Origin: Phoronis australis
Taxonomy: Eukaryota; Animalia; Phoronida
Direction of reading: 5' to 3'
DNA: 64,000 bases
Assembly (NCBI GenBank): GCA_002633005.1
Contig: NMRA01000302.1
Span: 257,760-321,759, forward strand
Below are positions 18,963 to 46,233 of this stretch, piece after piece (the first letter of the stretch is position 1; the number at the start of each line of letters is the position of its first letter). Below the pieces are notes generated by a model, which saw only the letters and a program-made list of their open reading frames with translations, did no database searches and was not told the origin of the DNA. The position numbers were made by a program, and so were the translations under genes.

Positions 18963-21900
18963 TCAATGGGAAAGTGTCGCTGCGGCCAAAATCAAAGTAA
19001 GCATGGGTGGTTCGGTCATCTTTGCCTTGGTCCCTGTGTTCTCTATACTTGCGTCCATTTGTTGGTTAGCGGGGTAGTGTTCCACAGTCTTTCCTTGAAA
19101 TTGCACTGAAAACAATTATTGTACGAGACATTTGTTTCGACAAAATGGTAAAACTGAATGCTGTTCATATCAATGGGAGCTAAATATCATTTGTATGAGT
19201 AATAGTGAAGCTAGTGGGTACCATGTTTCTGCAAGAAAGGCCAGTTCGTGATTTGTACAAGTTCCAGTTGGAAGACTAACCAAAGTTAAAAGCAGCCCCA
19301 GAGCAGGCACTTTTTCGGGATCGTTTGGAATGTCTGGTATTATGGAAATGTATGCAAGAAATCAATGTTTTCTCTTCTATATTGGTGACCACTAAAATAC
19401 TTTAAACTTGTCCTTTACTACCAGTAGCGTCACGATATTTCATTTACAGCAGGCAAATTGGCTGTCGACAAATCGCGATCGAAAACACGGCAAGTGATCT
19501 CAGATGAAATTTGTCGTCGTCACTAGAGAGATCGTGCGAGTGGTTTAGGAGCTCACCTGTAGTCGCAAAATTAATGTCTTATAGGTTTGCTTGTCCCAGT
19601 GAGAACACATCTGTCAGTTACCGTGATTGTGGCTATTAGTAAACTCATTAGCGAATCCATGCGAAAACGGAAATGTATCGTCATTTTCCTAATATGTACC
19701 AATATGCCAAATTTCGTGGAAATGCATAAAAATTTGAGTGTGCAGAGGCAAACGTAAAAAATAGATTTGCCACCGGGGTACAGCGATAGGCAGATGTGTC
19801 CAAAAATCGTCGTCGACTGTCTTCGTTCAACGAAATAATTGCCAAATTTAACAAAGATCCCGTAAGGGGCTTAGTAGAAACAGACACGGACTCAAAAAGG
19901 CACTAGGGGGACCGCAGTATTCGAATAAAAAATTAGTGTCGATCCTACTTTTTTTAGTTTGAACAAATCTGCCAATTTCCATGATTCTTCAGCGGTGGGT
20001 TTCGCGGAATAGATGGTAAAATGGCCGGATGGAGGACGGGGAGACTGATGAAATTCCACTGGGCGGCTAGTGGCGGACATTGCTGTTTCTAGGACGGTGA
20101 CGACAGTTAGCAAGCATGGGCTTACAAGAAATCAAGAACGTCCGCCATTGAATGAATACTCTATGCTTTTTTGCTTCCTCGACTAGACGCCCGCTAGGTA
20201 TCGCTGCCGTCCATGAAACAATAACGACTGCGACCAGTGAAATAACATGCAATCTTCCTATTGTCTATCCATCCAAAAATACATGTAAAAAGACGTTGTC
20301 ATGAAAATCCGTCAACTATTCCGAAGATACAGAGGCCAACGTGAAAACTCACCCTTGCGTTCCCTTTTATAAAATAAGATTACATGAAATCTTCAGAATT
20401 GCGCGTAGGCCTACATACGTGAAAGGGTTTTGAATATATATGTACAGCAGGGTACGCCTGGCGGACAGCCAGACAGACGGACAGACGGAGGGACAGACGG
20501 AGGGACGGGCATCACAGTTTTGTGTCAGCACGTATGGCACGACAATAGTTCACTCACCAACAGGCCGAGTTTTCCCGAAAACGGAAGACGTCTCACTCCA
20601 GTAGGGATTGGTGTTCATGTTTATTTTACCACGGACCACGATCACGTATTCGGTGTCAGGGAAGAGCTTTGCAATAACATACCATATTGTCTTAGAGCCC
20701 TTGGGCGAAGTGTCAGTGACATTAACTGTCTGCAACGTGAGAGTTTGTAGTCATATTTTTAACAATCTTCGGAAAAACACTTCAACCTCAGAAAAACCAA
20801 CTTGTCCATTTCCAGCTTAACAGTTGTAAACAGAGGAAATGAAAGAGTGTAGACATCTTTTTATGAAAGTGTTTGCATCTTCGCTGGGAATCAGTTTACG
20901 ACTAATTATATATATGGCCAAGAACAGGTGGCTTTAATCTTAAAATGGAAATTAAGTCCCGCCATTTTAAATTTCCGAGATCAGAAAACAGCCTAGAGAA
21001 ACGTTCTCTCGTTTTTTAGAGCTCAGAATGAATGATAAGGCATTTACCACATCCCTTGGTCAACAAAACAGAAATAATTACATTTTCCAAAAACAATTCC
21101 ATCATAATATTTCTTAGTGAATTCAATTTCAAACTGATCTTCCAGCATTTTAAAGCCCTGAAGTCATCGCTAATGTAGTAATTGCCCTGCTCCACATAAA
21201 AAGAGACTAAATCCTGATATCGAATGATTATGGAAACCGCGATCTACGTGCATGTACAAATCAGTTAGGGAAGACAGTGTGCACGGCCACTTGGCCAATT
21301 AACAGGTAATGATTAAAACCTTTAAAAACAGATAATGCCCTGTAACCTAGCCAACACGTGAAAGTTTAAAAAAACCTTAAGCCGCAAACCTCATTAAAAC
21401 TCTAGGTAAATTTGGTCTGGAAAGACCGCCTGCCCCAGAAAAGAACCCATGTTGTGACACAGCAAGACAGGGTTTTACCTCTCAAGCATTTTGAAATACA
21501 AGTTTCTTGCGAGAAAAACTAGATCCCGCAAGACAATTTTTAAAAAATGACGCAAGTGTTCTATTAGCAGCAGCCACTATACTGATACTACTCAAGGAGG
21601 TCCACGTGCGTAACACATCTACCTTTCTCATGTAGCCCCGTTTTCCCAGGTCTTACATGCATAACTAACCTGTGTACACCAACAGTTACTCGTAAAAAGA
21701 GACGAAGAAAACAAAGATGTTTCATTAAAAACCATGATAGTTATACAACCTTTTAAGTTTGAGCCAAATCTTCAGGAAAGTTGATGACCCGGCAACGTTT
21801 ATGTCAAGAACTGTGACTAAGAAGTCATAAAAGACCTTCGGCGAAAGGACTGTCAGTGACAGTCAATCAAAGACCTGTGACAGGAGCTTTAAATACAATC

Positions 21901-24900
21901 CAAACATGATATGCTCAGACTTTTTAAATCCAGTTGTATAGCAAAACACGACATTTCGTACCTTACCAACAGTGCACCACTTGGTTCTGTAGGAGACCTC
22001 AAACACCATTCCGTTAGCTACCCTTAAAGTTCCGTCCATGCCATGCGGGGGCGCCCACGTCACGTTCAATTTAGTGCTCGGGTCACTGATAGCGGGGCTT
22101 GCACTTAGTTTTTGAACAGGGTGGGGCTTGACTGGAATAAAATTGTACAGTAGGTCTTTGTTAAGATGAATGAACTGTATACGATTTCTCTGATTTAAAA
22201 AACACGCCAAACAGTGTCAACGTTAGCGAAGAAACTAAAGACCTGCTAAGAATTTTCAACAAAAAAGTGGTTGGAGAGAGGTATCGGAAAATTGGAAAGT
22301 TAACGATTCTTCCCTAAACAGATTGGTTGCTACTCAAATTTTGAGTAACCTTATCGGCAAGACTGCAATTAACGAAGAATCTAGAATATTATAACTACAC
22401 TAAACTCAGTAAAGAACATATTTTCTGGCAGAGTGTATTTGTTGAAATTAGTCATATTTTCCACCAATTAAATCATATGACCATGTTTTTGTTGATAGTG
22501 ATGGATGAAAAATGGTATAAATAATATCAGAGAATATTTTGATATAAATATTCAAAATTTAATATCAAAAACGAGGTAAAAGTTTAGGTTTCGACAGTAC
22601 TTTAATTAAGATAGGAATACTTTATTAATTTCCGTCTGCGCTTTGGAGAACAGAACACACAAGATGATATCTGAAAGTTAAGGTTTACTTCGATCAGTCA
22701 TTACTGAAATATGACAATATAAATTGACAGAATTAACTCATACCCTTAAAAGTATAACCAACTTTTTAGAAACATATGGTGTTTTAAAAACAATATCAGC
22801 CTACTTTATGTACTCATACACTATACCATACACTGGGGTTCTGGTTATTGGAAATGGGGTGCATATTAATATTAAACGATTTCGTTGCCTGTGAAACGCG
22901 CACGTGCACAGACAGCTACGTTTGCGTCATCGTAAACTGTACCGGTGTCGCAATATTGCACTCACACTTGAACTCTTGATCTACCAGAACGATAAATGGG
23001 CCTTACTTATCTCCGGGTTGGCTTTAACCTCATACAGTTGGGGTCCAACAGAGTATTGACCTCGTGTGACCTCGACTATGAAGCAGTAGGTGCTATATTT
23101 GTGGAACAAGTGCGGATACTTAGGGCTGGAGAACTTGGAAAAGTATATCCTGAAGACCGTGAATTCTCCAGTGATCTTCTTTTCGGCTTCGATCGCCTTA
23201 GATTTGTCCACGAGGCCAGGCGTGTATCTTGGACAGCTACTACTGCAAGCAGACGCAGTGGGTGACATATCATGATGTCATGTTTAGTAGTACCGGTGCT
23301 TCCAGAAAGGACGAACATCTCCCTCTGAGACATCATGAGGAGTGTAAAGAGAATTGCCTTGATATTCTGGAGATCCTCGAATGAGTTCGCAAAGAAATTA
23401 ATGCTAAAACACTTTCAAGACATTGTCTTTTTGAAATATTTGACAGCTGCACTGGTCATTTGGCTTGAGATTATTAAGGTCACCTGGTAGAATTTAAAAG
23501 TCGGATCAAAACAAATAATTCATTTTAAAACATGACGTTGTACTGTTTGGTTTCACAATTTATTTTTTAGTTATTCTGTTTTTTAATTTTTGTTGGTATT
23601 GTTTATACAAGGGAGTTCAGGTGGTCTGATGTCATTTACGGTGCATCAGACGCGGCTCGTGATTGGGCCCATTGCACCAAACACCTGAGCTAAAAACAAT
23701 ATCAAATATTGTCGTTGTTTAACTATTTTCAAGAGATGTTACTCGTTCAATGAAAAGTTGCCCTTGTTTTCATCTTTGCTGTCTCTTTTCGAGTAATAAA
23801 TCGTCACATTAAAACTGTTTCTTTTACTAGATAAAACTTGCAACCTAACGCGCAAGTACATACATATAGGATGTGATCCGCCACGTGAACAGTCTGGGTG
23901 AAGTATTTAAAAAATCTGCGCAAAAATGAAAGAAACTTAGAAATTCGAAGCGTATGGGATAAATACAAAACGTACCCCGATTGGATTACATGAAGTAATA
24001 CATGTATCTCACTCGACACTATTCGGCGTAATGTCTCGTGAGATATTACTTCATGTGCGCCACTCTCGGTACGTTTTGTGTACATGTATTTATTCCATTC
24101 CGTTGAATGCTCAGTTGAATTCCAAACTCTGTTCAGATGATATTAACGGAATTGAATAAAGATAGTTAACAACGACAAGTGTCGTGTACTTAACCAATGT
24201 CGCTTTGACGAAAACACGTTACATAAATCGCCAAGGAACTTCAAAGGAAACAGACTGAAATCTCAAAATTGTCCCAGTGGAGCTGAGTGGTAGTCCGATC
24301 TGCCTGAAAGTCGCCTGTCTATCGTCAAAGGAATACTCTCGCCAAATTTCACAAAGATACAATTAGTTATTTAGGATATCTGTACAACCGAGGGCGCCAC
24401 TAGGGTGCGCCACAAAAGTCGGATCATTTTAACAATAGTGCTTTAGAAACTCTTCTTGATAAGGACGGTGTGTGTCTCAAAAAGAATGAGGCAGAATACG
24501 AAAAATTAAAAGGTCTTTTTACATATGAAATAGTTACACATTGCTTGACAAAATGAAACACAACAAGAGCTCAGGTTCTGATGGTTTTTTAATGGAATTT
24601 CTGATTTTTTTCTGTGCTGAAAATAGGCATTTCGTTGTTCACTCACGTAATACTGGTTTTGTTGTTGGTCAGTTATCATAAACATCCCTAAGCGAACAAA
24701 TAAAAGTGCAAATTTAAACAAAAAATTCTTCGGCTGTGTCTTAAGGGTTAAAATTTATCTTGGGAAAACTATTCAGTATGGACCCGAGAGGTTTTTTTGC
24801 TGGAAGAAATATGAAAGAAAATATCCCCGTACTATTTGATCTAATGTTTTATATCCAGTCAGCTATCAAAACAGGATTGCTCGATTTTGAGAAAGCATTT

Positions 24901-27900
24901 GATTCTTTGTCGAGGAATGTCATTCAAAAATTTACCTTTTCTTAATTTTGGTTGGTCGATCAGAAGGTGGGTAATTTTTTTATAGTAATATTAAGTCGTG
25001 TGTTGTCGTAGATGGTCACCTATCTTCCTGGTTCAATATTTCGCGTGGCTGAAGACAAAGTGACTCTTTGTCTCGTTACACTTTATATTGTGCGCGGAGA
25101 TTTTGTCGTCTTTACAGTAATCAAGAGTAATAAAAATATTGCAGATGTAGTTGCAGGACGACACATCAATTACATTGGATGGGTTGAATTTCTCATTGAC
25201 TAGGACACTGAATGTATTACATTGGTTCCAAGTGAATGTGGATATAACAAAAGCCACATGGTTTGGAAGTTAAACTGGTAGCGATGACTGATTCTCATAC
25301 AAAAGAAAGTCTATGTTGAACAAAAACAAATTTTTGGGGTTCGATATTGACACTCAATTGGACAGTGCGACGCATAAGAACTTCACTGCAGGAATGACTG
25401 AGATTAAGTCTTTATTAAAACGTTGGAGTCGGCGAAATTTAACGCCGTTTGAAAGAGTAAATCTAATTAAAAAGATAGCTATGTCTAAACTTAATTTTTT
25501 GAGCTGTCAAGTTTACCAAATCCAACAGTAAAATTGTTGGAAGAATTAAATACGGTATTCTTTTGATCTGTATGGCAGGCTCATACCGATAAAATTAAAC
25601 GAACTACGGCCTGTTGAGGACTTGATCAAGGGATACTTCAAATGGTTAATACAGAATAAATACTTTTAGCAAAGCTTTAAAACTCGCCATGACCTGCACA
25701 TATCTTGAAAGGCTTGCGTCTAAAAGTGGTGAGTTACTATACTCACAGTACCTGTTCTTAAAGAATTTTCCTTCATTTGGAGAAGACTTTATTAAGTAGA
25801 AGATAACTCTTATTGACAATTCCCACTGGCGCGACGTATTTGGAAGTCTGAGATCTTTATATCAGAACATAATTGTTGCGAGTAAAAATACTTTTTTAAT
25901 CAACCTTTGTGGTTTAATAGTAACTTGGGGACGGGAGGCAGAGGTGCTTTTTACTAGTCATGGTTTGTAAAAGGCTTAATATTTTTCAGAAACATGTATA
26001 CCCCTGATAGTGATTTCTTCAGTTTAGACCAAATGATAAATTTGTTCCATGTAAAAACAATATAATGGTATTGTTTCTCTTCTAAGAAGGTTTCAAAAAG
26101 TCTATTTTAAAGTAATTTTAAAAGTGTTAATTTCTATTCCCCTTGCATGCGATTAGCAAGTACTCACTTACGTGAGATGTGAAGGTTGTATACATATTGT
26201 TTCTATCTTTAACGACATTAAGAAACTTTCTTAGTTAGAGCGTAAATGGGAAATAGTTATTGAATGTTCTGAACCCCCCTCGACCCACAACCCCTTGACC
26301 CACGACCCACGAACCAATCGACCCATGACCTGTGGCAATAGAGGTATCTTTGCGCTTTTTACATATTTTCTAATCTTATTACGTCACTGGGTGATTTCCC
26401 AAAAGACAAACCTACATGCGAGTCTGCTTTGGCTGAAGTCTGGTGATTAAAAACAGAAAGTGACGTAAGAACTGTGGTGGTCTTGAATACCGCATTATGA
26501 CCGCGCTATCGTTGTCACGGAAATAGTTTCACGAGCGGCTATCAATGGCCCAGTTCTAATAAACTTAGGGAAAGAGTATGTTAACGTGAATGTAAATAAT
26601 TTCATATTTTTATTATTTGGTTTATATTGTATACTCTTTTACAATATCCTCCATATAACGTTGAAATCTTTTAGTTAACAGTTTGTTTTTTAAACTGTAT
26701 TTACTGCTGAATTTACAGCTTTGTCGGTTCCTCGCACTCTGCAATTCACTGAAGAGCAGGAAACAGGTGCCAGAAAACAAAATTTGGAGATAACAGATAC
26801 TAGCCACGTAGGTAGAACAGAATACGTCAAATCCATCAGAAAATGGGAAGGAGTCCTCAGATACCTAATTATCAAATTTCATGAAAACTCTTCAAAGAAT
26901 TGTGAAGATACAGAGCCAAACGTAAATAACTAAAACTGCCACTAAGGGTGCAGTCGGAACTACCCTAACTTCGTGATCATCACTTGCCATGTTTGCGCAA
27001 AATATCTTGCCAGTTTTCAATAACATCCCCAACGGAAGGTGGTCGCAAGGCGCCAAATAGATAAGACTGGACTATGCAACCACAGATACAAAATGTTGGA
27101 GCAATGAATTGGTATAGTATATACATGTACATGTATATGCTAACACCGGTGCCCACTATCTATAACTGAAAACAGTGTAGTAGTCAAAATTGGCGTGGTG
27201 ATCAATCAACAATTAAGCACAGAAACTCAAAAATTGATGGCGATAGTCAAATTTGAGGATGGGTGCTCAAAATTTGATCGTGGTTAGCCGCCAATACAGT
27301 ACTTCAATATTGTCACAGTTTATAGCGTTTGAACGCCATAAACTCTAAACAACAAACACAAAATATAATTTGAGCATTTAAGAGTGCGATGAGTGTTCAA
27401 ATATAAAAAATGACAGTTCTAACTATTGGAAAAAGATATCACAACTGATGAGAGTTTCAAAAAATACAGCTAAAATTTCATGAAACTTCATCATTTCTAT
27501 GGGAGCAAACGTTCTGACTCGTGTAATTCCCACTTTCAGTTGTAATCAGTTCAAAACTCCCATTTTATCACGTAACACCATCATATTACTTCAGTGCAAT
27601 GTGCTGCAACTAATTACACTAAAAACCAGCGACCCAAGACTGCCGTTGGATGTCAATCAAGTATACCCCCGGCATGTGTCGAAGGACGCCACTTACATGG
27701 TTCTGGTGAAATTGACTTCAACCGACAGGCCAGTGATGTAAGGATAGGGTAAAACCCACTCACACTCCATATCGTAGAAGTTCTGGGACACACAGTTTGG
27801 TTGGCTGGGTAAAACAAGTGGATCTGAAAAACATTACAAAACATTCCCTTTAGTGACTCCGCGCTATAATGACTGTCAAACGAAAGGAGCTATATGATAT

Positions 27901-30900
27901 ATTGTTAAGGGATTTCTTTTAATCTTTTGTCAAACCTGCAAGTGATTTCTACTTTTTGTACGCCTTGATCTCGAAGAAATGTTTTAAGCCCAAGAACATC
28001 GAATAAATTTATCTTATTCAATAATCCGTCGTCTGCCAGTACACTATTTCCGCAGTGAAGTGCAAAATACTACCCGTACTGCTTTGCGTGACGCTACCCT
28101 AGCGAATGATTTATGAACTGCTATTAACAATACATGTAGGACGTGACGGCGCCATCAAGTCTTTGATATGCCGAGGACTTCCCTGGATACTCTGGGGTTA
28201 ATAGTCCAAGCTTTCTCGTCCTTTTTTGTGCAACTGCTGTTAGCTTAAGACTTGTGCAATGTCCTCAGACATGATGAAAATGATGACAATGACGATTGCG
28301 ATGATGATGATGATGATGATGAGGATATAGTTTCCTGGGTTGAAAAGAACTGGCAGTTCATTTGTGCGTTAGTGTTTGAGAACGCGGTTCTAAAATTTGC
28401 ATTTCATTTTGTAAGCCGAGCAGGGTGTCAATCACAACTGAATTGTTACTTCTTCCCAAGCTCAGCAACCATTTCACATTTGAATAAGGAAAAAGTTTAT
28501 TTTCTTAGTGGCGATTGGTCGAAGTCACATTTCCTTTGAGGAAAGGCAGTCGTGCGTTCAGTAAAGCTAGGACCTAACTAAATCTAGCCAAACTCACGTG
28601 TTTTCACTTCAAATACACAGTAATATCTCATGTAATATCGCAAATAGTCATGCTTGTTAGCAACGCTTTAGTAACTCGACACATGGCCAGGTTTATAACC
28701 TTAGCTGACAACGTAGGCTTGTAACGGTTGTCTGGGAATGACGTCACGAAACATGTCAAAAGCGTCTGTTCGCAGAGCACTTTATTTCTCAGGCTAGATT
28801 TCAGTAGCCGTCTCGCGACTAGAAAAATCTACCTAAAATCCTTTGTTCTCATTTAAAATACGCGGCAACATTTCGAGCCTTACTCTTTAGCGAGATCGTA
28901 GCGTTATTCAAATCTTCCTAGATGTTGAACTGTTTTCGACAGACCACTCACGTAGACAATCAACTAACTCAATTTTAAGTTTTCTAAGTTAAATTATTCA
29001 TGCAGTTTTAAAAAGCTGTATTTTTATATATTCGGCATAAAATCAAACCTTGTCCATTTATCCTCTAAAATTTGTTCTCAAAATGTTTGTGGCTAACATA
29101 CATGTACTACTCTAATACAGCTGCCACAAAGGACGAACAAAGCACTAGCCATAGACAAATGCTTAAAAGTGCCATCGTTTGTAAACTTTTGACTGCTTCA
29201 AAGTAATGGCAAATAATCTGTCAATTCCAACCGAATATTGAAACATTGCCATCATACTAAGTCAAGGTCGATGTCTTCGTTGGTAAATTTGCTCGATAAA
29301 CCCGCCCTTCGCCAAAGGAACTAATCACTCACTGCTATAAAATTGGTCTCAATTTGTTATTTGTTAGTCAGATGAGGATGTTTTCTGAGCTAGGAAAGAA
29401 TTATCAGTCCAGTCGTGCTTGAAAGGCGGGTTGAATTGAAACGTGTTTAACGTGAACGTGCACAAGATGTGACAGTGCACCGTTGACCTTGAGAGTATAC
29501 CTTTAACGAATACACAGCATAACAGCAGGATGGTAAAATCTCACAAATTTAGGACAGATATGGCGGACAACTGAAGTCTCGATTTTATGTTTTATAAAAT
29601 AAAAGTCACCACAACAAATGGTTTGCAATTTCTCAGTTCTTTATCATATAGTGTACCTGTTACTTAACATCGCTTTGAGAATTTTTGAACATTCACAAGC
29701 CGTATAAGATCGAAAGATATCAATTTTCACAAATACTTTTTGACAAAAACTGGTGAGTTTTGTTGTAATATAATGCATAACTTACAAACAACTGTCAGTT
29801 GCTGGGCAGGGTCAAAAGGTCCTGTATTGCCATTACAGTTGTAGCAACAACGAACATATTTCAGGTGTTCAGCCATGGACAGGTTGCGAAGAGTGATGTA
29901 CGCTACGGATGAGTTCTGCGAGACAGCCTGTAGTGAAACCGTCGAATACAATAATTAAATAAAGCAGCACCCATCGTTCACCTCACCCCTAGAAGTCAAT
30001 CCATCGACTGTAGAGAACACCGTCCTAAAGACGCAGCAACGACAATTCCGTGATTAACCTTTGTGTACTGCAAAATTGCCCTCTAATTTCATCAACTCGC
30101 TAACGAACTCCGGTAAGGTCTTCTCCGCGCTGTCTCCGTCTCTTTCTCACAGCTACAACGACTGCGGGTTGGGAACATTCTTGATAATCAACTCGCTCAC
30201 GATCTCCGGTAAGTCCTTATGTAAATTGAGTCTGCATCCACGTGTTGTGATCCCCTTCGATGTTGTATCTCCAAGTCGTATATATCAAATGTAGCGATCC
30301 ACTCGGATGCCATGTCGACTGGTTCTTCAAACTGCGAAGCCATTTCGACGAACTGTGATCACAAGGAACTTTCTTCCCCAAAGATAATGGAGGAAGTGTT
30401 TAGCAAATGCAACCACAGCCAGCAGTTCTCGATTTGTGGGGTAGTAATGACCTTGCGTTTTGGATAGTGCACTGCTGGTGAACGCGAATGATCCGCTCTT
30501 TTCGGATTTCAATGTGAGACAAAACACCAAATGATCCGTTGGTGGATGCATCGATATCCAGCAGCAACTGACAATTCCTTTCAGGAAACCACAATACCGG
30601 TGATTCTGTAAAAGTTTTAGACATTCAAGGCGTGTTGACAGTCGGCGCCTCACACAAAACGATGATTCTTCCTGGTTACAGAGGTAAGGGAAGCCACAAA
30701 AGCAGTGAAGTCTTGAATAAAACGCCAATAATGAGACACCAACCACAGGAAACTTCGCATCTCCCTGAGAGTGCTCGGACAAGGCCAAGACAGGAGTGAT
30801 TCCACCTTGGCTGGGTCACACGAGATACCCTCAAATGACACCACGTGACCAAATTGATTTGAAGACCAAGAAAGGTGCACTTTTTGGACTTCAGCTTCAA

Positions 30901-33900
30901 GCCAGCTTGTTGGAAACGTTGTAGGATCTATTGCAATTTGTATATACACTCGTAAAAGGACTTTGCATGGCAGATCACATCGTCCACGTACACAAGGCAT
31001 GACTTCCACTGAAGGTCTTTTATCACTTTTTCCGTAAGTCGCTGGAAGGTAGCACAGGTATTGCGGAAGACCATAAGCATTGTGTTGAACTCCCAAAGTC
31101 CACATTATGGGGGTAGCAAAGCTGTCTTAGCCTTATTTTTGTGTGCTATGGGGACTTGCCAATACCCACTGGCAAGATAAAATGGAGAAAAAAGACACCA
31201 AGTCAAGCAGATGGTCCAGACATGTGTCCGTGCGTGGCAGAGGGAATTCGTCTTTTCTTTTAATGGAATTCAGTTTTCAGTAGTCCTCAGTAGTCCGGAC
31301 AGACCCTCCAACTGTCAGAGTCTTTTTTCGGTACTAGCACAACTGGTAAAGTCCACGGACCGTCGCTAGGCTCGATAACGCCAGACGTTATCATCTTGTC
31401 CATATCTCTTTGACCAGTATCTCGCGTTGCGCTACAGGCAACCGTCTTGGAGGCTGCTTGATGGGGCGATGAGTACCAGTGTCAATGAAGTGTTCAACCA
31501 AGACCGTCCGACCTAGCTCGACACCTGAACTACAAATTACTACATTATTTTTAAAGTTCCACAATTAGTTTTCCAACATCTGCCACTCGTGACTCGTATG
31601 ACCTTCTATCGAATGGTTGTGCATGAATTGCACATGAATGGGGACGTGTTCGCCGCCATCACAACCCACAGATTTCAACGCCGAGTGAGCTAGGAACAAT
31701 TGCATCACAACGAGTGACCCCTTCAGACCAAAATGATAACACTGTGTCGTGCGTTTCCAAAAATTGCCATTCAATTAAGTTGATAGAAAACCGACAAAGC
31801 TTACAACAATCTCATTGGCAGATTATTGTCACGGCATAGCTTGTCGGTCTGCTACATGTATTTAAACGGTTAGCGTTTCAACGAGTTCTTCGGCTAACCA
31901 ACGCTACGTCACATAGCCTTATCTGTAAAATAATTGGATTTTTGATTTTTACTCGCAAAACTTTCAACAACTTCATTGGTTCCTATAACGTCACAAGTTT
32001 GTCAGACAAATAACTGGGCTCAATAACCATCATAATCGCGCTCACACCCTGTCTGCAAAACAGTCACGTTTCTGCAATTCAGTCAGCAAACCTTCAACAC
32101 ATAGAAATTGACTGGAAAACATCGTTCTCACACCATATCAGCCAAATAATCAGATTTTTGCAATCCCTGAGAAACATTCATGGGTCATAACTCGAGAATT
32201 AAGTGTACAATTTATATCCAAACTTTTCCGTTTTCAAAGGAAGAAAAGGGGAGGTTTTGGCAGCTACTGGGATTGGATAATTATGCTTAAGTTCTTCTGG
32301 GTACTAAAACATGTGCCAAACTGGTGTTTTGAGAACGGTCATGAACTAGGTAAACGGATATTCGAAATGAAGCCCATCGTATTCGTCCCTTAAGTACATG
32401 ATTTCTACTGATTATTCATCAGCTCCAATAAATAGCCTTACCATCAGAGTGACCCTACATTCCCTTTTAAAAAGTCACTTTGCTTTTTTACAAAAATTTT
32501 TCAAGTTCTATTTTCGATAGCTCATTACACAAAAAGGGAACGATTTAAAATCATTTCCAAATACTGTTTTGGAGAAGTTTCAAATGAATCCATTTGTCCA
32601 TCTCCGAGATATTGTGTTCAAAATTTGGCCAAAATTGTCCATTTTCTATGGTATTACACGGTCTCTTAATAGGTCATGCCATGCTATTCTCTGCTGATGA
32701 CATTGAAAACAACAGTTTCTTTATGAAATGTGGGTCTTGTCTTGCAAAGATGTTATGTAAAGCAAAATCGCTATGGTATTGAAGTTGCGGGGAGCGAGTG
32801 CGGTCTTCCGAATTGTATTAAATTCGTAAACATATCCATGTAAGATTCATTTACGAGAAACTTAAGTTTGCAGAAAACACATTTTTAAGCATTTATTACT
32901 AGAGCGTTGTTGACTAGAGTTTTGAGCTAAGGAGCGAAAAATGATGAATTAATTTCACTGTTCCTCATGTCACATAAAACTGTTAGAGACCGCTAAACAA
33001 TCCCGAATCAGGTAGCAGGCGACCAACGCATACCAAAACAACTTTCAGTGTCGCGTAGTGGCTTGAAGTACTTGTTTGTACTCCGGCCTTCCTTCGAAGC
33101 AAACTGAGGCTCACACTTCAAATTCTATGGAGTAGGATGGAATGTAACGAAAGAGTAGTAAAAGAAGAGGACACAACCGAAGAGGACACGTGGTTTGGCC
33201 GTCGGTTTGCCCTGACTCATCGATAAAACGAAATGCTGCATCAGATTATATTTTACAGATTTTATTAATGCGAAGAGAGCTATGTTCTAGCACTAGCAAC
33301 TAATGTTTTAAAACATACGAGTTACAATTTTTGACAACTGAAGGTGCCCGCAGTCGTGTTAAAGCTGTTAAGTATACTAACCTTGATGTTATTTCAAGCC
33401 AAGCAATTCTCTTGGCGCTTTGTGTGACCAAGTTGGAAATTTTCGATAACAGAATAATATGATTGTATTCGGTCACACCAGCAACCAAGCGAGACAGCTC
33501 CCCTGATGAAAAGTTCGGCTTTCCCTTTTCCATATTATCATCTGCTGCGAAAGTGTTTTTTTCTCAACCTCCAAGCTTTGGAACTTCCACATCCGGTAAT
33601 TTACGTCAAACCAAGACAAAACTTCAGTCACATTTTTAGACGAACTTAAGATCACTGTCTTGAGAAGGACTTAACATAAACTTAAGTTTTTGTCACAAAT
33701 CTGGGTTGTAATAGCTGAGAAAGGTTTACTTGGAACGGGTCCTAGTATTGTTGGTTTAAATGAAAAGGACCAAAACGTACCTCCGGAGGAAGCTGTATGT
33801 TTTTAAACGTTATGTGAAATGGCTTGTCTGACTTCGGTTGGCAGCTATTCATCTCGCTCACTTTGATATTGACCGCACAGGTCAGCCTTAGGTCCTGTCC

Positions 33901-36900
33901 TACAACTGCTACAGGGTCACGTGGTAACAAAGTCACTGGAATGAATAATGAATGCATACAAATCCCCTTTTTAATCAAGATTCATTTCTTTACGTTGAAC
34001 ATCAAACCCACATCATGTGGGTTTTGGGGGCGCTCGTGTGCTCGAACCGTCCCCAACAAAATAAAATACCATACCCAAATTACAAGACAAACAGCACTTG
34101 AGCCTCCACATGTTTCTACCCCTGGGTTCACTTACAAGACCTTTAAAGGCGAAGGCAACCTTTTTCCATGTCATTTTGAGCTAAAATAAGGTTGGTTGGT
34201 TATCCTAGACATATTTTCCACTTAATTACAGCTTTTCGTAATTTTATAAATTACTCGTCCGCTACTCCGGAAGTGACGTTTTAGGAGGCAAGCGTTTCCC
34301 GCCACTTGGTTTTGCGTTGACTTTACCGTGCGAATCTGTTCTATTCTACTTTTGTTTTGTGCTGTTTTTCAACAATTGTCGCCACCACTTTCCATCGGCG
34401 AGTATTCTGCGGCAAGATAGGTTAGTAGAGAACTCAACTACGTTGGATTTAGGGATTGTTTAGTGTGTTGTAAGCTGAAAATGGCTGGAGTCGGTGACCC
34501 GTATCACAGTGACAGTAGTGTGAGTGACGGAGACCTTGTTCACAGCAGTGGTGACGAGGAATTTTTTCACGGACATTCAGTGGGTGGGTACATGTTTGAG
34601 CCCGAGTATAGCGAGGCAGAGTACGCACAGGCACAGGCAGCTGTTGAGAGAAACGAGGCAGCTACTGAGGACAGACGTTGTGAAACATCTTAGTGCAAAT
34701 GCACTGTGTGCGTTGTTATGCCTACCTCAATGGAATGCTTGTGCTGTTCAGAGTTCGACGAGGCCAAGCCACTACTGGACATGGTTAAGTGGACCTCCGG
34801 CATACCACGGACAGAGGAACAACAGTCCCACTTGCCAGAGTGTCCTGCGACACACTCCCACTGGATGGTGACCTGAGCACCCAAACTGCTTACATCGTGT
34901 CGTGTGACTCCCTCGCCTCACACCTTGCACCTTCTAAATAGCTCCAATACTTTAGACAAGTCCACAATAAACTTATCAAAGTTTGGCTCGCCGATCTGTT
35001 CACTGGACGACGAACTGTCCTCTTCACTGGGTGTCAAACTGAGCCTGTAATCACTCCCACAACTCAATATCGCTGCAGGGGGGCTGCTTAGAGGCTCTGG
35101 GCTGGAGAAAACAGCACAGGGCGAATCACTACTGGTTCCAGGAATTGCACGCTCTGGGGTACGTTCGGAGGCACGGGTGACAGTAGATGAAGTGCCTCCA
35201 CTGGCTCCAGTCACTGTACTGGCCACAGCTCGCGAGGCTTCTCGCTTCAAAAACGCACTTCTCGCGGGTGGTGACGGGGCACTGCCGGGAATCATCACAG
35301 ACGGAATGGCATCCTTCTTCAGACGTGGTTTCGCAGGGACCTTCATCAGTTCAGCGTACAAATCCCTTTCGTAATCGGACGTCAGAAAGTGCTTGCCACA
35401 CACACGGTAATTCTCCACTGCTTTGTACGTTGCGTGGACGGGTAACTCTGCGTTCTTCACACGAATGAGCCAAGTACGGCGAAGTGTGTCATCCATCGGA
35501 AAGCGATGCAAAGATACTCCCAAAGCGCGCGTGAGCCGATAATTAGTACATCCTGGTACGCAGCAACAGTGTGGCATGTGACTGACTAGTATATGAAAGC
35601 AAACGACGACGGAACTTAACACAACCGAGGTAGAACAATGATTGACTCGGCAGCTCTCACAGTCAGACTATATGAAAAAAAAATTGGCGCGAAATGCTTG
35701 CCTCCTAAAACGTCACTTCCGGAGTAGCGGACGAGTAATTAATAAAATTACGAAAAGCTGTAATTAAGTGGAAAATATGTCTAGGATAACCAACCAACCT
35801 TATTTTAGCTCAAAATGACATGGAAAAAGGTTGCCTTCACCTTTAACTTAACAAGTACAGATAAAAGAACCTTCCTAGAGATAGCGTTTAGAACAGTGAC
35901 GTCTTTAGCCTTTGTCTCTTGAAAATGAATAGAGCAATCTCTATCACGGTCACATTAGCTCATATTAGCATTCACAACAAAAATAACTTAAAAAGAGAAA
36001 TTCTTTGCCGCACTGAAAATTGATATATGCCATTCTTAATACATACACATTCAACTCTGTGTTTTTGAAACGGTCAAAGTTGAACCATTTCTGACAAGCT
36101 TCAGTGCCTCAAAGTATAAATTGTCCGCATGGTCGGGGTTACGAGGCATAAGTTTGAAACCGTGACGCAAATAAACAGGACACTACACGTACTTTAACGA
36201 ACATGATATTACATTTGTCCTCTCTGTTGTACCCTACACTGGTGATATTTTCTATCGAAACTGGCAATCTGGGGCAGACGCAAGACACTTGTGAAATTGG
36301 CAAGGTCATTCGTGACCTGGGCGAGAGAAAAACGGGACTTTACTTGCGTGTAATTAAAAACGGTGAGCGGAGAGGTAATTGGTAAACGAAGCAGGAATTT
36401 TGAGTCACGGGATAGAAGTCCTGGACTCTGTGTAATGAACAAATATGTCTTGCCACATGTATCTCGAGAGTGTCTTGCGCTCGCGGAACGCACCCCCTGG
36501 GAATTTGGTATTGCAAAGGCAACAAAATTTCCAAAAACTTAACTTACAGCCACAGCTACCAAATAAGGCGCCGATAGGTGTCGCTGTACAAGTCAGAAGT
36601 AACGTGACAGTGAAAGTTTTCACTAACGACCACGAAACAGTCAGTGAACACGCGGCAGCTGCAAAGACATATAATTACATGTACAAAAGTCATTGCATAA
36701 GATGGACTCCAGTGACAAGGATTCAACAAGCAAGTAATGCGATTGAAATTTAACTATGTTGCAGTAAATAAAAATAGCCTTTCCTTCTACTATTCCGGGT
36801 ATTTGGAAATGTTTCAAAAATGGAGAATTGAATGAAGCCGATTGTATCATCAATAAAGGGCAAACTTCAAAACTAGCGATTGTGTTGACTGATTCGTAAA

Positions 36901-39900
36901 GATTGGCTCAATTTTGAATCTCCAGTTAACCCACTGGAATAACGTACACGAAGACTGAAGACACTGCGGGCTGCATGCGATAACTACATTAAGATTTCAA
37001 TCTACCTGGGACGCTGCGGCGTGCAGTGCTTTAGCAGAGTTAAACAAAAACAAGTGACTGGATGACGAATGTTATTTGAGCGATATTGAACTCGGTGTTT
37101 TCACCTACCGCAAACGCTTCTCAATTACCGGCGCTGGTGTCCTTTTTCAACTGTGTTGTGACGGTTGTAGGCTGGTAAGCATGCTGACGTCATAACACGG
37201 ATAGTATTCAGATATTCATGGATGACTCGGTCGGACGTGCCATGGCTGTATATGGTGCAATTTGGACCAGGAAATAAGAATGGACCTGCCGTCACACCGA
37301 GTCCAAAAATGACGTTAAAATGACGGCATGCTAACTAAACATTCCTACAGGCAATATGTCGGAAAACAACACTTTCACTCGAGCGCGCTACTACAATTAA
37401 ACACATCTTTGATGGCTGTATGACTAAGCAACAATAATAAAAAATAAGAAGAATAACAGACAGCTTCAAATTGCGCCGGTGTACATTAGTAAATACCTTG
37501 CACGAAAGATTCATCATTTGATTACGTCGAAGTCAAATCTCACTCAAATATTATCTACATGTAGAAACGACAACAGCACAACATAGCGGATAAGTTAAAC
37601 ATTCCAGGAGAAAATCGAAAGAAATATAAAAATCACTCTAGGGTCATCTCTTTGGCTCCGATACAAAAGTCACCAATTTTGTACTTATTGACCTCTAAGT
37701 TTGTTTTCCTATACGCCTTCAAAGGTTCAGGAAGAAAAAGACACGTTCTTGCACATCGAAGACAGTAATTGTCCGATATCAAATCATATAGGTTGCATGC
37801 AATGAGCAAAAAACATTACGGAATTAGGAAGTGAGACATAACAACTCCCGAATTAAATTGATAATAATGATTTTGTTTCATTCATCACGTGACAGGGGAG
37901 GCATGTTTGTGGTTGAAAGTCACTCAAGCGAATGTTTTTTTTTTGTAACTTCATTTCATTAAAATGATAAACCGCCTTGAACACCAGCCGTCGTACATGT
38001 ACGTCATCCTGCACTGCGCTGACAACGACATCGGTCACACCAATTTACATGAGCTAGGCACCACTCTCAAGGCCGATATTTCCTGAGAATCCACAACAAA
38101 TTTTCACACAGCACAATTGTTTGGTTCGAAATACTACCACACTAACAATGCCGAATAATTGTAGGTACCATACAAGTCATGAACATCGCCATGGCCACAA
38201 CCAACTCCATGGGGGTGAAACTGTTCTCAATCATTCCGGGTACTACATCCGGCCCCCTAACATTACAGTGAACGTCAGGTTGTTGTTCCATTCAGATCGA
38301 GCCCACCTGTCCCCTTTAGGGAACGATATTCTCGCAGTGCCATAAAGGGTACCTTAGAACATTTCACTGTTGAAGGCCCTCGGGTGTATGGGCCAAAGCT
38401 CTATCCTTTCTGCCAACATGTACATTGTAAATAACAGACGTGTATATAGTACTATGATTTGGGGTACACATGTATATCGCCATATTATATTACATTGTTA
38501 AGCTGCCCTATTCTTTTCTCATATCCCTCAGCACTTAATGTACTCTTCCACAAGCTATCCCATGAGCCTTCGCGCAGGAAGTAACTCGCACATGCGCAAT
38601 GCGTAGTTCGCTTGCGCTGCAAATCCGCTATTAGTCACAAAGCAGAACACCACACAAGAAACCAGTCAACAGGTTCACCTCTCCCCACGCGGGATGTGGC
38701 GGTGAGCAAGTGTGCTCATTCATGAACAACCCTGTCCTTCTGGCACAAAGTGAGCCAAAACACCACGCTCCTTTCATTATCTCTATTATCACTCCTCTTG
38801 GCCTGCTCATTCAGCTTGAATGGAACCTGCCTCTCGTTCAGTAACGCTAGGACCTCGCTTAAAAGCAAGACCCTTTACGAGATTACGTGAGATATTGCTG
38901 TGTATGAGATCGCGTGACTTTGGCTGAAATTTAGCAAGATCTTAGCGTAGGTCCTAGTGTAGGTCCTAGCGGTAATGAACGCACGTCAGCTTTGCCAGAT
39001 TGTTATAGCCCAGTTGGCTGTTTGATGTACCCACTTGGACATTTATAGGCCTATGATATTTGCATACTTGGCAGTTTGTACCCCTTTGATGCTTAGTAAT
39101 AAACCTGCCGTGTTGCTCTACCCAGTTGGTAGGCAATCGGACAATGCATATTGGGAATTCTGTACCTAGTTGGTATTACTTACAAACCTGTGTGACTTAT
39201 CGGATACTCAATTACACATTGAATACCGTAAATATATATTTTACCTCTTGTAATTAAGAAAGACAAAGATTGTGAAGAGCGAAGAATCCAGTTTTGTTAG
39301 GAGTTCATTGAATCAAAGCTTTTAACACATGGAGATGACATTTGCATTTCAAAACTAAAGCAAGACTTTGAAGCTTCACTTCAGAAACCAGGTGTACAGG
39401 CAATCTTAAGAAACGACTGTTGAAGCTGCAGTTTGGGTCCATTAAGAGTTACGAAAGTGAATTGAGGCTGGTGTTCAATAATTCACTTGCTGACACACTA
39501 ATGAACATGGCCCATAATAACATATTTTGAATCAAACACGTGTTCAAATCATGCCTGCATCCAAACAAGGATTCAATGGTTCAACCTTCATTGCATGCGG
39601 GACAGTTACCATTGTGCAGTGCTACCCTCTCTAAACTCCTATAAGTGGCTACTTTCCGGGGGAGCTTTTCAGTTTTAAGAAATGGATGGCAATGCCCACA
39701 GCTCCATTGACTATATTAAACGATGTTGGCTGCAAGTGCACAAAGAACATGTGTGCAGGGAAACTGAGTTTGTGCTGCAATGCTGGATCAAACTTTACAG
39801 AAATGCGCAGTTGTGTCAGCTGTAGTAGTATCAGGAACACTGACTGTATAACTTTGGATAGTTCTTTGATAAGTCAATCAAATACAATCACGTTTATTTG

Positions 39901-42900: not shown

Positions 42901-45900
42901 TTATTTGTTGATTTAGTCATAGAAAGTAATACTTTTTTCATTATCATGTATTTGTCTTGCTACACAGTTTCAAAATAACCGAATATTTTCATATAGTCGA
43001 TGTGAACATTCACAGAGATAATTCAGCTTTGTTGTGTGTTGTTCAACATATTTCCAGTATACTATGTAAACATATTCAATTTTATTCCATTAATCAATGG
43101 TGCAGTCACTGACACACATATTTTAACAATATTTGAGTGCACTGTGTAATTTTGCTTGTCAGACAATGTCATTTTAACCTCGTTGTTGATGCCGTGCATC
43201 AATTTTTGTCATTGGTTGTTGTATTTCATTTCCTTGTTACGCTATCTATTTTCTTTAAAGGTAGCAGTACATCTTTCACCGCTGTGATTTGGTTTCTTTT
43301 ACTAAGCCGGTTCTTTCCAGTGGCTACAATAACATTTGCATAGTCTAATAGTAGCTTGACCGGCCGGCTATTATTACGTATTAGCCTCTGTATGTTACGC
43401 TGGTTTTGGTGACTAGCGTTTCAAGAGTTTACCGGCATTCGTAGACAATATCTGTAAGGCGAATCATGTGTTTTCCTCGGATGCTGGAACTTTTATATTA
43501 AGCACAGACTGTTAGCCAAACTGTAGTACTGAGTATTATTGCGTAGCATGTTGTACACATGTGTATCTACTAGCTAAGTTTAGAGCGTATATAGTTGTTG
43601 TTTGACGTACATTGGCCTTCAGCTGTGGGTTGGCGTATATAGACCCTATTCACGCCGACAGGAGGCGCGTTCCAAAACAAGGCTCGCTACGATAGCTCTG
43701 GTGGCTTATCCGCGTCGTTGTACTCCGCGTTGCTCGAACAGCTAGAAAAAATATGGACACTCTGTTTTACAATCCCTAAGGACGTTGGGATTCGGAAGCG
43801 TTGGGTCCTTGCCATACGCCGCGACGAAGGAAAACATGTCCGTGTAAAATTTATAACTGTTTTCGAATCATAATTTGTCGCATCTCGGACTGGATGCCGC
43901 CACAGCAACGAGGACCGGAGAATCTTCGGCCAGCCAGGCTGTTTTCATGACTACATGTATGGGTTGAAGCGCGATGCATTTTTCTTTATAAAAAGGACAG
44001 GGCCCTAAATCCCTCAATTTTGGGGCCAAATATTGGCCCTATTCCCCTCTCAAAAATATTGAAAAATCACGCGAAATTCCCAGCCACGAGGCCTAAAAAT
44101 CCCTTATGATTGAAAATTCCTCGCCAACGGTTCAAATCGCCAGTGACCACAGAGGTGACAATTTGAAAAAGTACAAAATCATAGGCGGATTAAGGGGGGG
44201 GGACAGGGGCCCGCCCCCCCCCCCTTGACTGTCGCAAGCAAAATAAACCAACAAAACGTGGAGCGGGAGGAAACTTGTACTGAGTTCGAGCTAGGAACGG
44301 TAGCGGACGAGGGGGGAAAACACGTTCCGTTTTATTTTTTTTAGTCCAACGACAGATTTCCTGAGCAGAATGTATACATCCTCGGCGCCCGCAACTTCCG
44401 GGCCGCCTGCGTGCATACAATCGCGCTTTGCCCGCTTCTCCGAGGATGTCGGCCCCCCTCACTAGGCCTATATGATATCCTAGATCAACCACTGAAAATG
44501 CTACTTGAGACAGAGCTATGAGAGCTTGCAAAAGGGCGGGGTGTTATTGATGGTGATCGGGAGGTCAGCAGAGTTTTCACTGACCCGTCACTCGGCGAAA
44601 CGTTCCCCTCTCAGAAGGCCGCACACACATCATTGATGCACCTTTCCCCTCGGATATGAACGAGGCCTCTGAAGAAACATGATAACTATGCTTGTTCCAG
44701 GGGGGATCCAGGACTTTGAGTTGGGGGGGAGCAAGGCAGAGTATTAGCCAGGATTTTGCCCGTCAGAAATTCGCGCTCCTGAAATGCCAAATGGAATCTG
44801 GGCGAATTTTAGGGGGGCTGGGGCATAGCCCCTTGGCTCCCTTCTAAATCCGCCACTGTGTTCTGTCCAGTTAACTGAAATTGAGCTCTATAACGAGGTT
44901 ATGCTTTGGAAGAAAGAATTAGGTGTTTTAATTTTAAAATTCAACTTGGTCGAGATCGATATTTGGAAAATATAACACATGAAATAGACGTAATTATTAA
45001 AACCAAGAAAACAGAACTGATATCACATAATTTTTATTTTCAAAGACCGGCCATTTAACTCACGCAATGTAAATTTCCGCTTTGTTTATCGCAGTGAGCC
45101 TCGCTTTGGATTTTAATGTCCGCCGCGTGAATAGAGTCTATGTTGCGCGGTACCCGGTTCATAGAATAAATACTTACGGGTCGCAGTTAAGCAGTTGTTT
45201 GTGTATGGTAATGGTTCCCAGCTATAGAATAGATAGTATGGGTTCCAGTTAATTGTGTATTGTTAGCGAGGTAGTATTTGTTAGGCCTGTAATACAGTCA
45301 TTGTCGCTAGTCTTTCTAACTCTCTGATATATAGTGCTTGTTAATTAATTACGCTTGCTTGCCGAGTACTCAGACTGTTTTTCTTTATTGCAGATAACCG
45401 CTTGTTCGGTTTCTCCTTTTCATCGCTTGTTCGATTTCACTTCTTCAACGCCTTTTTGTTTTCAATTTTTCAACGCTTCTTTGTACATGTATTCACAGAG
45501 AAATTTTAAGTACGAAACATCAAAACTATCCGCTGAGATAAATTTGATTGTTACATGACGTCAGTTGCATTGTTCAACAATAACGACGTGACGTGCGATA
45601 ATGTACGTCATTGTTGCTATACGGCGATAACTTTTATGCAACTGTGCCCAGGGGTAGATTCCAATGTGCTTTACTTGGAGTAGAGTATTAAAATTAGACC
45701 TTGCGTTCAGAAATTCGCCTTGTGTAGGGTTCATTTATATACTATTATGAAAGGGGCCGCCAACTCCGTCTACTACCACAGCTTAAGAGCTGTAATCTGT
45801 GTCTACTCAATGGTGGCGCCAAACAAGTTTGTTTTTCAGGTTACACTTTACGTGCTGTGATTGTACACATGTATGGTGCGTCTGCTGACTGTGGTTTTTT

Positions 45901-46233
45901 CTATGTCGTAAAACGTGACATTTTCAATGGCATTTTTTAAACTATTGTCGAATACTCATGTGATGTGGAACGGCTTTTTTAATACCGAAAAAGCTTTCGT
46001 AGTGCTAAGCAATTAAATACGTATCAGAATTTACCTCCTTAATACAATGATCGGGTACTGAGGTCTGAGAAGACGTGAATGCGCCTCCCATTTGAATTCA
46101 TAAGGAAATGTCAAATCATGTATTGAATATATGGTCATGCAGGTTGCCTGGTGATTCCTACGGAGCAGGCACATATTATAACGAGTTTCTACCAGTCTGC
46201 TGCTTTTCAATACCTACCTTTGATGTAGCACAT
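18963..46233 (-). CDS. Gene B: CNTFR-alpha/CRLF1-like class I cytokine receptor, SP + Ig + CHR + putative GPI-anchor signal, 423 aa
   Basis: Exons 46233-46218, 36658-36548, 33935-33781, 29927-29786, 27823-27697 (NCVSQNFYDMECEW), 23242-23007, 22131-21962, 20729-20558 (PYWSETS), 19105-18963 (...ENTGTKAKMTEPPMLTLILAAATLSH*). Total 1272 nt, no internal stops, all GT-AG. Length differences versus A are multiples of 3. No sushi or second-Ig exons seen between 20558 and 19105. Confidence 0.85.
24480..26270 (+). mobile_element. Degraded L1/Tx1-clade LINE ORF2 (RT and downstream)
   Basis: KSSGSDGF, LLDFEKAFDSL, SSWFNISRG*RQ, KFLGF, WSRRNLTPFERVNLIK, PLWFNSN motifs with many stops and frameshifts. Confidence 0.8.
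29970..31560 (-). mobile_element. Degraded Ty3/Gypsy pol fragment (RT and RNase H)
   Basis: IDTGTHRPIKQPPRRLP, LASGYWQV, CLVYVDDVI, LKLKSKKC, GHVVSFEGISCDPAKV, RELLAVVAFAKHF; frameshifted. Confidence 0.9.
33300..33742 (-). mobile_element. Harbinger-type element end with Myb/SANT-like DNA-binding ORF fragment
   Basis: KPNFSSGELSRLVAGV...AKRIAWLEITSRL resembles the Harbinger Myb/trihelix partner protein. A GGACCCGTTCC-type end lies at the B-specific insertion boundary. Confidence 0.6.
34481..34780 (+). pseudogene. KolX-like accessory ORF fragment (Cys-rich, resembling the P2X7 C-terminal domain)
   Basis: GYMFEPEY...ETS*CKCTVCVVMPTSMECLCCSE; the TAG at 34691 sits where the W of the W-C-x-C motif is expected. 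Confidence 0.75.
34780..35577 (-). pseudogene. Truncated Kolobok THAP-domain transposase
   Basis: MPHCCCVPGC...LHRFP...WL...RVCGKHF...LKKDAIPS is a THAP domain. It is followed by KFIVDLSKVLELFRRCKV* (probable Cys-to-stop) and CVAGHSGKW; the DDE core is deleted. Confidence 0.85.
38000..39221 (+). mobile_element. Ngaro (tyrosine-recombinase retrotransposon) 3' fragment, older copy
   Basis: SGNH-like NDIG...HLSPLGND remnant and terminal sequence ending GATACTCAATTACACATTGA, as in 48180-49080; interrupted by a MITE at about 38830. Confidence 0.75.
39600..39845 (+). mobile_element. Academ-like transposase C-terminal Cys-rich fragment
   Basis: KWMAMPTAPLTILNDVGCKCTKNMCAGKLSLCCNAGSNFTEMRSCVSC fits the W..P.AP..L...C-x-C Cys-cluster tail recalled for AcademX proteins. 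Confidence 0.5.
39870..42700 (-). mobile_element. Degraded non-LTR retrotransposon (ORF1 + APE + C-terminus; RT deleted)
   Basis: ORF1 coiled coil plus VERAHRLG...TEDFS; APE motifs VSETW, STVDHL, SDHFP; C-terminal GIWG and C-x2-C..VEDEYHFLLIC; AATAAA with an ATTG-type tail near 39870-39900. Clade uncertain. Confidence 0.85.
43641..45139 (+). mobile_element. ISL2EU/Harbinger-related non-autonomous element with THAP remnant and nested MITE pieces
   Basis: AT|AGACCCTATTCACGC...GCGTGAATAGAGTCT|AT (TIR with AT duplication). IPKDVGIRKRWVLAIRRDEGKH at about 43770-43836. G/C-tract MITE ends at 44180-44250 and 44698-44858, with a related inverted copy at about 50140-50218. Confidence 0.7.

Follow-up and report, generated by a model that had tools for sequence, protein, structure and literature searches.

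Can an animal outside the vertebrates carry a lipid-anchored, non-signalling cytokine receptor built like CNTFR alpha? The question is raised by gene B of the phoronid Phoronis australis, which lies in a stretch of 64,000 nucleotides (nt) from contig NMRA01000302.1 of assembly GCA_002633005.1 (positions 257,760 to 321,759 of the forward strand). This whole stretch is called the window, and positions are counted from its first letter. A reading made from the letters alone, here the sequence-only reading, had assigned to gene B an immunoglobulin (Ig) domain, a cytokine-receptor homology (CHR) module and a glycosylphosphatidylinositol (GPI) anchor signal. Following it up, we propose that the gene B product is a GPI-anchored, non-signalling member of the cytokine-receptor superfamily, which would bind a ligand and act through, or compete with, a separate chain; we put the probability of this reading at roughly 45%. 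Alpha chains that do not signal are commonly regarded as something vertebrates added to the gp130 system, and in the literature searched, supplements not opened, we found no description of a lipid-anchored short cytokine receptor outside vertebrates.

The transcript of gene B is defined by three raw-read RNA runs of the same species, all from one study (X5, X6 and X7), whose reads were placed on positions 18501-38500 and 44001-64000 of the window. Stranded reads resolve nine exons on the minus strand, running from 46274 to about 18500 (Table 1); the gene is on in X5 and X6, and no junction reads occur in X7. All eight introns are GT..AG on the minus strand (CT..AC on the plus strand), and the reads have a single orientation. 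The borders of intron 1 come from loose read ends: 96 in X5 and 72 in X6 at 36660 have a consensus identical to 46220-46249, while 84 and 68 at 46218 have a consensus identical to 36629-36658, and because two bases fit either side, the borders are placed at 46218 and 36658. RNA molecules end at 46274 and the depth is 0 across 46669-48669; exon 1 is therefore the first exon. Joined from the ATG at 46233, the exons give 1272 nt, that is 423 codons and a stop at 18963-18965, and the protein ends in ...LTLILAAATLSH. The 423-residue spliced frame and the C terminus deduced earlier from the letters are thus reproduced exactly from RNA-defined exons. The C-terminal peptide has a single coding site in the window (minus strand, 19002-19043) and is matched 0 times in 100 shuffles. 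The 3' untranslated region extends below 18963 to beyond 18501, with a depth of 49 and 43 in the bin 18501-19167.

The absence of a transmembrane-plus-cytoplasmic region and of a Box1 motif, also claimed earlier, is borne out by the junctions, the 423-codon frame and a Kyte-Doolittle hydropathy scan. An additional exon between 20558 and 19105 could have supplied such a region, and none is present. Within the intron 19106-20557 the depth in the three runs is 0.67/0.04/0 (bin 19168-19834) and 0.23/0/0 (bin 19835-20501), the bins holding exons 8 and 9 have a mean depth of 34-49, and the joint between these two exons carries the most reads of all (156/145). This near-zero coverage excludes a hidden transmembrane or cytoplasmic exon. 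Skipping of exon 8 (19105/21962) is the only alternative form, with 4 and 2 reads against 156 and 145; it shifts the frame and would truncate the protein early. In X5-X7, no gene B transcript ending before exon 9 was seen, and the depth downstream of exon 8 is about 0. The scan finds only two hydrophobic stretches in the 423 residues, at about 17-40 and at 411-423, and no internal hydrophobic segment. Without a transmembrane-plus-cytoplasmic part there is no Box1, and without a membrane-spanning and signalling part a partner chain would be needed for signalling.

The N-terminal stretch is a predicted signal peptide, with a 19-residue Kyte-Doolittle maximum of 1.56 at residues 21-39, and it ends S-C-G at the border of exons 2 and 3. 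Exons 3 and 4 follow with about 100 residues whose cysteines, Cys 62 and Cys 121/122, are spaced as is typical for an Ig-like domain; the whole protein has five N-x-S/T sites. At the C terminus, the tail M411-H423 consists of 13 residues, none of them D, E, K, R or P, and has a mean Kyte-Doolittle value of 1.66. A transmembrane helix was considered for this tail and rejected, as 13 residues are too short to span the membrane. Four parts are described for a GPI signal: a linker comes first, the residues at omega-1 to omega+2 are small, omega+3 to omega+9 act as a spacer, and from omega+10 onwards the tail is hydrophobic, the usual omega residues being C, D, G, N and S (PredGPI paper, PMC2571997). 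Taking G401 as the candidate omega puts the spacer at omega+3 to omega+9 and the start of the tail exactly at omega+10, with a K at omega+2; taking N399 (N-T-G) suits the rule on small residues, with a tail that starts at omega+12. The GPI-type end proposed earlier fits the four-region description overall, each candidate omega departing from it at one point. The exon is present twice more in the window, as described below, both times with N-A-G, a K-A-K-M-T spacer and a hydrophobic end made of different residues; hydrophobic character kept while residues vary is expected of a functional signal rather than of a specific structure. GPI anchoring of the gene B product is, on these predictions, likely.

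The same features bear on another explanation, in which the product would be a secreted, soluble cytokine-receptor-like subunit (compare IL-12 p40, EBI3 and CRLF1) and the hydrophobic end would not be used for GPI attachment. Its short hydrophobic core, 11 residues followed by S-H, would suit such a protein, as would an omega region that is not ideal at omega-1 or omega+2. The conservation in three genes of the hydrophobic end, the polar spacer and the small residues, while individual residues vary, points the other way, and so do the transcripts, none of which was seen to end before exon 9, with a depth of about 0 past exon 8. We regard a secreted product as very unlikely.

Between the Ig-like domain and the tail, residues ~142-376 would form a two-domain CHR module, as inferred from motifs and gene structure. 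C-x9-C-x-W is a signature of class I cytokine receptors, which open domain 1 with C-x(9-10)-C-x-W; gene B has it there, in exon 5, as CVSQNFYDMECEW (residues 152-164), and a paralogue in the same window, B', has the equivalent CMSQNFYDMECKW. A W-S-x-x-S motif follows, with 211 residues from the first Cys to the WS motif. Shuffles of the gene B protein yield the first pattern in 237 of 20000 cases and the second in 706 of 20000; both together, as they are kept in B', appear in 8 of 20000, a figure that flatters the case because the W-S-x-x-S pattern was relaxed after the sequence had been seen. Class I cytokine receptor genes generally share a 1-2-1-0-1 array of intron phases, and the RNA-defined junctions around the four module exons of gene B give 1-2-1-0-1. 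The same array is also reported to typify the two FNIII domains in class II cytokine receptors (PMC8863823; bioRxiv 10.64898/2026.05.30.728932), and the complex splice structure of class I receptors is reported to be largely conserved (PMC1963337).

Profile, fold and library searches used single-exon (contiguous) translations as queries, not the spliced 423-residue protein. In these, exon 8 resembles fibronectin type III (FN3) domains. A two-sequence profile of gene B and its paralogue matched PDB entries of FN3 proteins in all eight cases at E<=10, including fibronectin, tenascin, pikachurin and IL-2R beta, with a weak best E of 0.049; searched as a single sequence, exon 8 had IL-2R beta as its sole match, aligned across the WSXWS of that receptor at a weak E of 0.38. 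Below the Pfam cut-off stand fn3 (E 0.063, paralogue) and the FN3-like N domain of purple acid phosphatase (E 0.033, gene B), and in the ESM Atlas 26 of the 30 named neighbours of exon 8 carry fn3 (score 0.92). The last part of the module is accordingly FN3-like, and the module as a whole is cytokine-receptor-like by motif position and gene structure, with no significant alignment. The CHR label of the sequence-only reading keeps the C-x9-C-x-W motif, a degenerate WSETS, the phases and a weak FN3 likeness on its side, and lacks a significant receptor match.

Several results weigh against our proposal. The WS motif is at the expected place but lacks the second Trp, reading WSETS in gene B and WSALS in B'. 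In domain 1 the second Cys pair, far closer in class I receptors, is C187-C237 with 49 residues between. No exon has a significant match to a known cytokine receptor in PDB, Pfam or the protein libraries; a Pfam scan of single exons gave nothing above cut-off, and the best PDB E of exon 8, 0.049, is to generic FN3. Against PDB, exon 5 had no matches as a single sequence or as a profile, exon 6 had one chance-level match (CD1b3), and exon 7 had five, all to ribosomal protein L4 at E of about 1, and none as a profile. Exon 6 is not recognised by the ESM Atlas, and an exhaustive HMMER search with exon 6 and its paralogue against 1.84 billion representatives returned only two matches, both translated tandem repeats and rejected as spurious. 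No longer proteins matching exons 6, 8 or 9 came up in word-based searches, and of the 261 (exon 6) and 593 (exon 8) pattern matches in metagenome scans none was confirmed. AlphaFold2 models of single exons (exon 6 of gene B and the Sushi exon of its neighbour, gene C) were unusable, with a mean confidence score (pLDDT) of 45.4 each. The lysine at omega+2 for G401, the tail from omega+12 for N399 and a start codon that is the second AUG belong on the same side.

Much of this would be expected under the main rival reading, a GPI-anchored Ig/FN3 recognition or adhesion protein from a fast-evolving, lineage-specific cluster, unrelated to helical cytokines or JAK/STAT, whose cytokine-receptor-like motifs would be remnants or chance. 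The similarity shown is to generic FN3 only, domain 1 is unrecognisable in searches and WSXWS is degenerate; the neighbours are Sushi+Ig proteins of GPI type that share both the last exon and the pattern of expression with gene B. Tandem duplication, a ratio of nonsynonymous to synonymous divergence (dN/dS) of 0.48 between gene B and its paralogue, and protein changes in 4 of 8 listed coding differences would suit it as well. The RNA individuals differ from the reference at eight listed, near-fixed coding positions (23109-36571; exons 2, 3 and 6) and at 136 more positions; the changes among the eight are G35D, N65K, R189T and G193A, the last two adjoining Cys187 in domain 1. What this explanation accounts for less readily is the exact position of C-x9-C-x-W, which opens the first FN3-like domain, and of W-S-x-x-S before the last strand of the second. 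These motifs and the 1-2-1-0-1 phases together point to the cytokine-receptor superfamily, and IL-2R beta is the sole PDB match whose alignment runs across the WS motif. We judge a recognition or adhesion role somewhat unlikely.

Is gene B maintained at all? Between gene B and B' the synonymous divergence (dS) is 0.24, and dN/dS is 0.48 overall, 0.27 in domain 1 and 0.79 in domain 2; we count the overall and domain 1 values for the cytokine-receptor reading, as a sign of selection. A recent duplicate in decay, still transcribed but with no function of its own being maintained, would fit the 0.79 in domain 2, the lack of relatives in the protein and metagenome collections searched, and the out-of-frame AUG 5 nt before the start codon. 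Two ATGs lie 5 nt apart in exon 1 (46238-46231): the upstream one at 46238 is out of frame and runs for 12 codons to a stop in exon 2, and the second (46233-46231), with a purine at -3, opens the 423-codon frame. The pair is also present in exon 1 of B' (17960-18016). Decay is nevertheless hard to reconcile with a nine-exon frame that stays open in the reference sequence and with each of the eight listed coding variants, with canonical splice sites throughout supported by 58-156 reads per run, with the 0.27 in domain 1, and with the sole ATG of gene C, which aligns with the second AUG of gene B. We hold it to be very improbable.

The window also bears on the origin of the anchor. The earlier claim that the GPI exon is common to gene C, which has no CHR module, is confirmed and extended to a third gene. 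The last exon of gene C (coding part 51144-51286) has 76% DNA identity to that of gene B over 268 nt, the anchor exon is entered in phase 1 in both genes, and a further copy is the last exon of the third gene at 63067-63418. Expression of the three genes runs in parallel, each being on in X5 and X6 and silent in X7. A leader exon common to genes B and C is not claimed, as the exon 1 homology amounts to a 19-nt donor match only. The anchor exon stands on unrelated ectodomains within the cluster, and the likeness to CNTFR alpha is therefore read as convergent: most likely, the anchor was gained inside the gene cluster via a reused phase-1 terminal exon and not inherited from a CNTFR-like ancestor. 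The sequence-only reading had likewise preferred convergence to CNTFR orthology, and an anchor exon shared inside the cluster makes a local, independent origin the simpler account. The cluster also shows how phase-1 exons let different ectodomains combine with one anchor exon.

How does gene B compare with known systems? CNTFR alpha, the vertebrate GPI-linked class I receptor, consists of a leader, an Ig domain, a two-domain receptor module, a short stalk and a GPI signal. The predicted domain order of gene B is the same as that generally given for CNTFR alpha, and it has likewise no transmembrane or cytoplasmic part; it differs in its degenerate WSXWS (WSETS), its non-canonical second Cys pair, the absence of sequence similarity detectable at exon level, and an anchor exon shared with neighbouring Sushi+Ig genes, which indicates an independent gain. 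IL-6R alpha and IL-11R alpha are non-signalling, ligand-binding subunits that recruit gp130; they have an Ig domain and a receptor module, as predicted for gene B, but also a transmembrane helix and a short tail, of which gene B has neither. The long receptors gp130, Domeless and molluscan 'IL6R' likewise have an Ig domain and then a receptor module, whereas gene B ends after the module, without extra FN3 domains, transmembrane region or tail. According to a 2026 survey, CNTFR first appears in cyclostomes, and the molluscan 'IL6R' receptors consist of a signal peptide, an Ig domain, an IL6R domain and FN3 domains, together with a transmembrane region and a tail (PMC13203501). In the portion of that survey drawn on here, molluscs have only these long transmembrane 'IL6R'-type receptors and the term 'GPI' is not mentioned. 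For Ciona, only gp130-like and CLF-3-like receptors are reported in the cited account, and the gp130-like one keeps the class I splice structure (PMC1963337). Drosophila Et/Latran is described as a short receptor without signalling capacity, a negative regulator that binds Domeless (PMC4751595). It is a short invertebrate member of the receptor family that modulates a long receptor, as the gene B product may be; in contrast to gene B, which has no intracellular part, it is described as a transmembrane protein that binds intracellular components and cannot bind ligand (PMC4751595).

If the gene B product is indeed a GPI-anchored cytokine-receptor-superfamily member, we envisage its action as follows. 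The leader would direct it to the secretory pathway, the last 23-25 residues would be removed and a GPI anchor would be added at N399 or G401. The surface ectodomain, of cytokine-receptor descent and with no signalling of its own, would then capture a ligand. Two possibilities follow by analogy: First, the ligand may be handed to a transmembrane chain, as with CNTFR alpha and IL-6R alpha. Second, the product may block or compete with the transmembrane chain as a decoy, as with Et/Latran. Either role, ligand-presenting alpha-type subunit or decoy, is pure inference. Such a protein would mean a second, independent invention of the lipid-anchored Ig plus receptor-module design, and it would offer a concrete handle for finding invertebrate cytokine-like ligands and signalling chains. 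A wider interpretation would see here part of a cluster of genes for lipid-anchored, non-signalling receptors of alpha-chain type, assembled through exon shuffling in an animal that is not a vertebrate, with Ig+cytokine-receptor modules (compare IL-6R alpha and CNTFR alpha) and Sushi+Ig modules (compare IL-15R alpha and IL-2R alpha) set between phase-1 introns before one shared GPI exon. We consider this interpretation as a whole quite unlikely. Were it so, presentation of ligands by anchor-only alpha chains to a gp130/Dome-type receptor would be an evolutionary development separate from that of the vertebrates, implying undiscovered helical-cytokine-like ligands in the lineage.

Table 1. Exons and joints of gene B and related features in the window
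Feature	Position	Strand	Description
Gene B exon 1	46218..46274	minus	5' untranslated region and ATG 46233-46231; donor GTAGGT
Gene B exon 2	36548..36658	minus	hydrophobic leader, residues 6-42
Gene B exon 3	33781..33935	minus	first half of Ig-like domain (first Cys, C62)
Gene B exon 4	29786..29927	minus	second half of Ig-like domain (C121/C122); two N-x-S/T sites
Gene B exon 5	27697..27823	minus	start of putative module domain 1 with CVSQNFYDMECEW; phase 1 before, 2 after
Gene B exon 6	23007..23242	minus	remainder of domain 1, C187 and C237; phase 2 before, 1 after
Gene B exon 7	21962..22131	minus	proline-rich hinge and first half of domain 2; phase 1 before, 0 after
Gene B exon 8	20558..20729	minus	second half of domain 2 (FN3 E-F-G strands), YWSETS; phase 0 before, 1 after
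Gene B exon 9, coding part	18963..19105	minus	short stalk, candidate omega N399/G401, spacer, 13-residue hydrophobic tail, stop
Gene B joint	33935/36548	minus	reads X5/X6, 74/69
Gene B joint	29926/33780	minus	reads X5/X6, 86/112
Gene B joint	27823/29786	minus	reads X5/X6, 109/104
Gene B joint	23242/27697	minus	reads X5/X6, 102/109
Gene B joint	22131/23007	minus	reads X5/X6, 99/106
Gene B joint	20729/21962	minus	reads X5/X6, 81/58
Gene B joint	19105/20558	minus	reads X5/X6, 156/145 (highest of all joints)
Gene C	50990..60067	minus	7 exons, 283 residues; six joints with 103-212 reads each in X5 and X6
Third gene, last exon	63067..63418	minus	GPI-type tail, 70% protein identity to that of gene B; tblastn and RNA
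Paralogue B'	5467..18016	minus	homologues of gene B exons 1-8, by blastn and alignment mapping
Gene-C-like Sushi and Ig exons	501..4677	minus	790 nt after B' exon 8

The molecules of gene C end at 60067 and at 50980-50997, and its exons encode, in order, a leader, a Sushi/CCP-like (complement-control-protein-like) domain (57487-57687), an Ig-like domain, a Pro-rich stalk and the GPI-type end. The Sushi-like exon, exon 3, has four Cys and one Trp; its Pfam match to Sushi is weak (E 0.12, and 0.0063 for its copy), with 13.2 and 17.3 bits against a PF00084 gathering cut-off of 20.7, and seven of its eight weak PDB matches are CCP proteins. A likeness to Sushi surface proteins of the complement-control type thus applies to gene C only and stays below the Pfam cut-off. 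IL-15R alpha and IL-2R alpha are Sushi-type cytokine alpha chains, to which gene C may be linked by analogy only. Molecules of the third gene begin at 63067/63069, and 375 and 363 loose ends lie at 63418, its other exons being beyond the end of the window. At the Sushi exon of gene C, 242 and 191 reads continue at 57486 into letters absent from the window, and the bin of this exon has about twice the depth of the bins holding the other exons of gene C. The unmatched continuations at 63418 and 57486 and the doubled depth suggest at least one more close paralogue elsewhere.

Exons 1-8 of paralogue B' have 73-91% DNA identity to those of gene B; their splice sites are all intact, and together they read open for 374 residues. 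An exon 9 homologue was not found in the remaining 5466 nt of the window downstream of B'. The Sushi and Ig exons that follow it resemble those of gene C, and no leader exons of their own were found for them in the window; through a phase-1 acceptor at about 4677, the frame of B' exon 8 would continue open into the Sushi exon. B' and these downstream exons may form one fused gene, encoding Ig, receptor module, Sushi and Ig in turn.

The window is AT-rich (36-47% G+C in 2-kb steps) and contains a single N; an Rfam search of it gave 0 families. Between genes B and C, at 48670-50003, the reads have the opposite orientation; their depth is about 39 in each of X5 and X6, against 7 in X7, and loose ends occur at 48803, 49079 and 49807; the open frames there are short and broken only. 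Inside intron 5 of gene B, a 46-nt stretch (23838-23883) collects about 100 reads per run, whose flanks on both sides are unmatched in the window; as both run-offs match nothing there, the reads probably come from a transcript elsewhere that shares a short element. Intron 2 of gene B contains an open frame of 249 residues with a THAP domain (34918-35667, minus strand; Pfam E 1.9e-15). It is covered in all three runs by reads of both orientations, with many variants and loose ends, and is probably a multi-copy, transposon-derived element.

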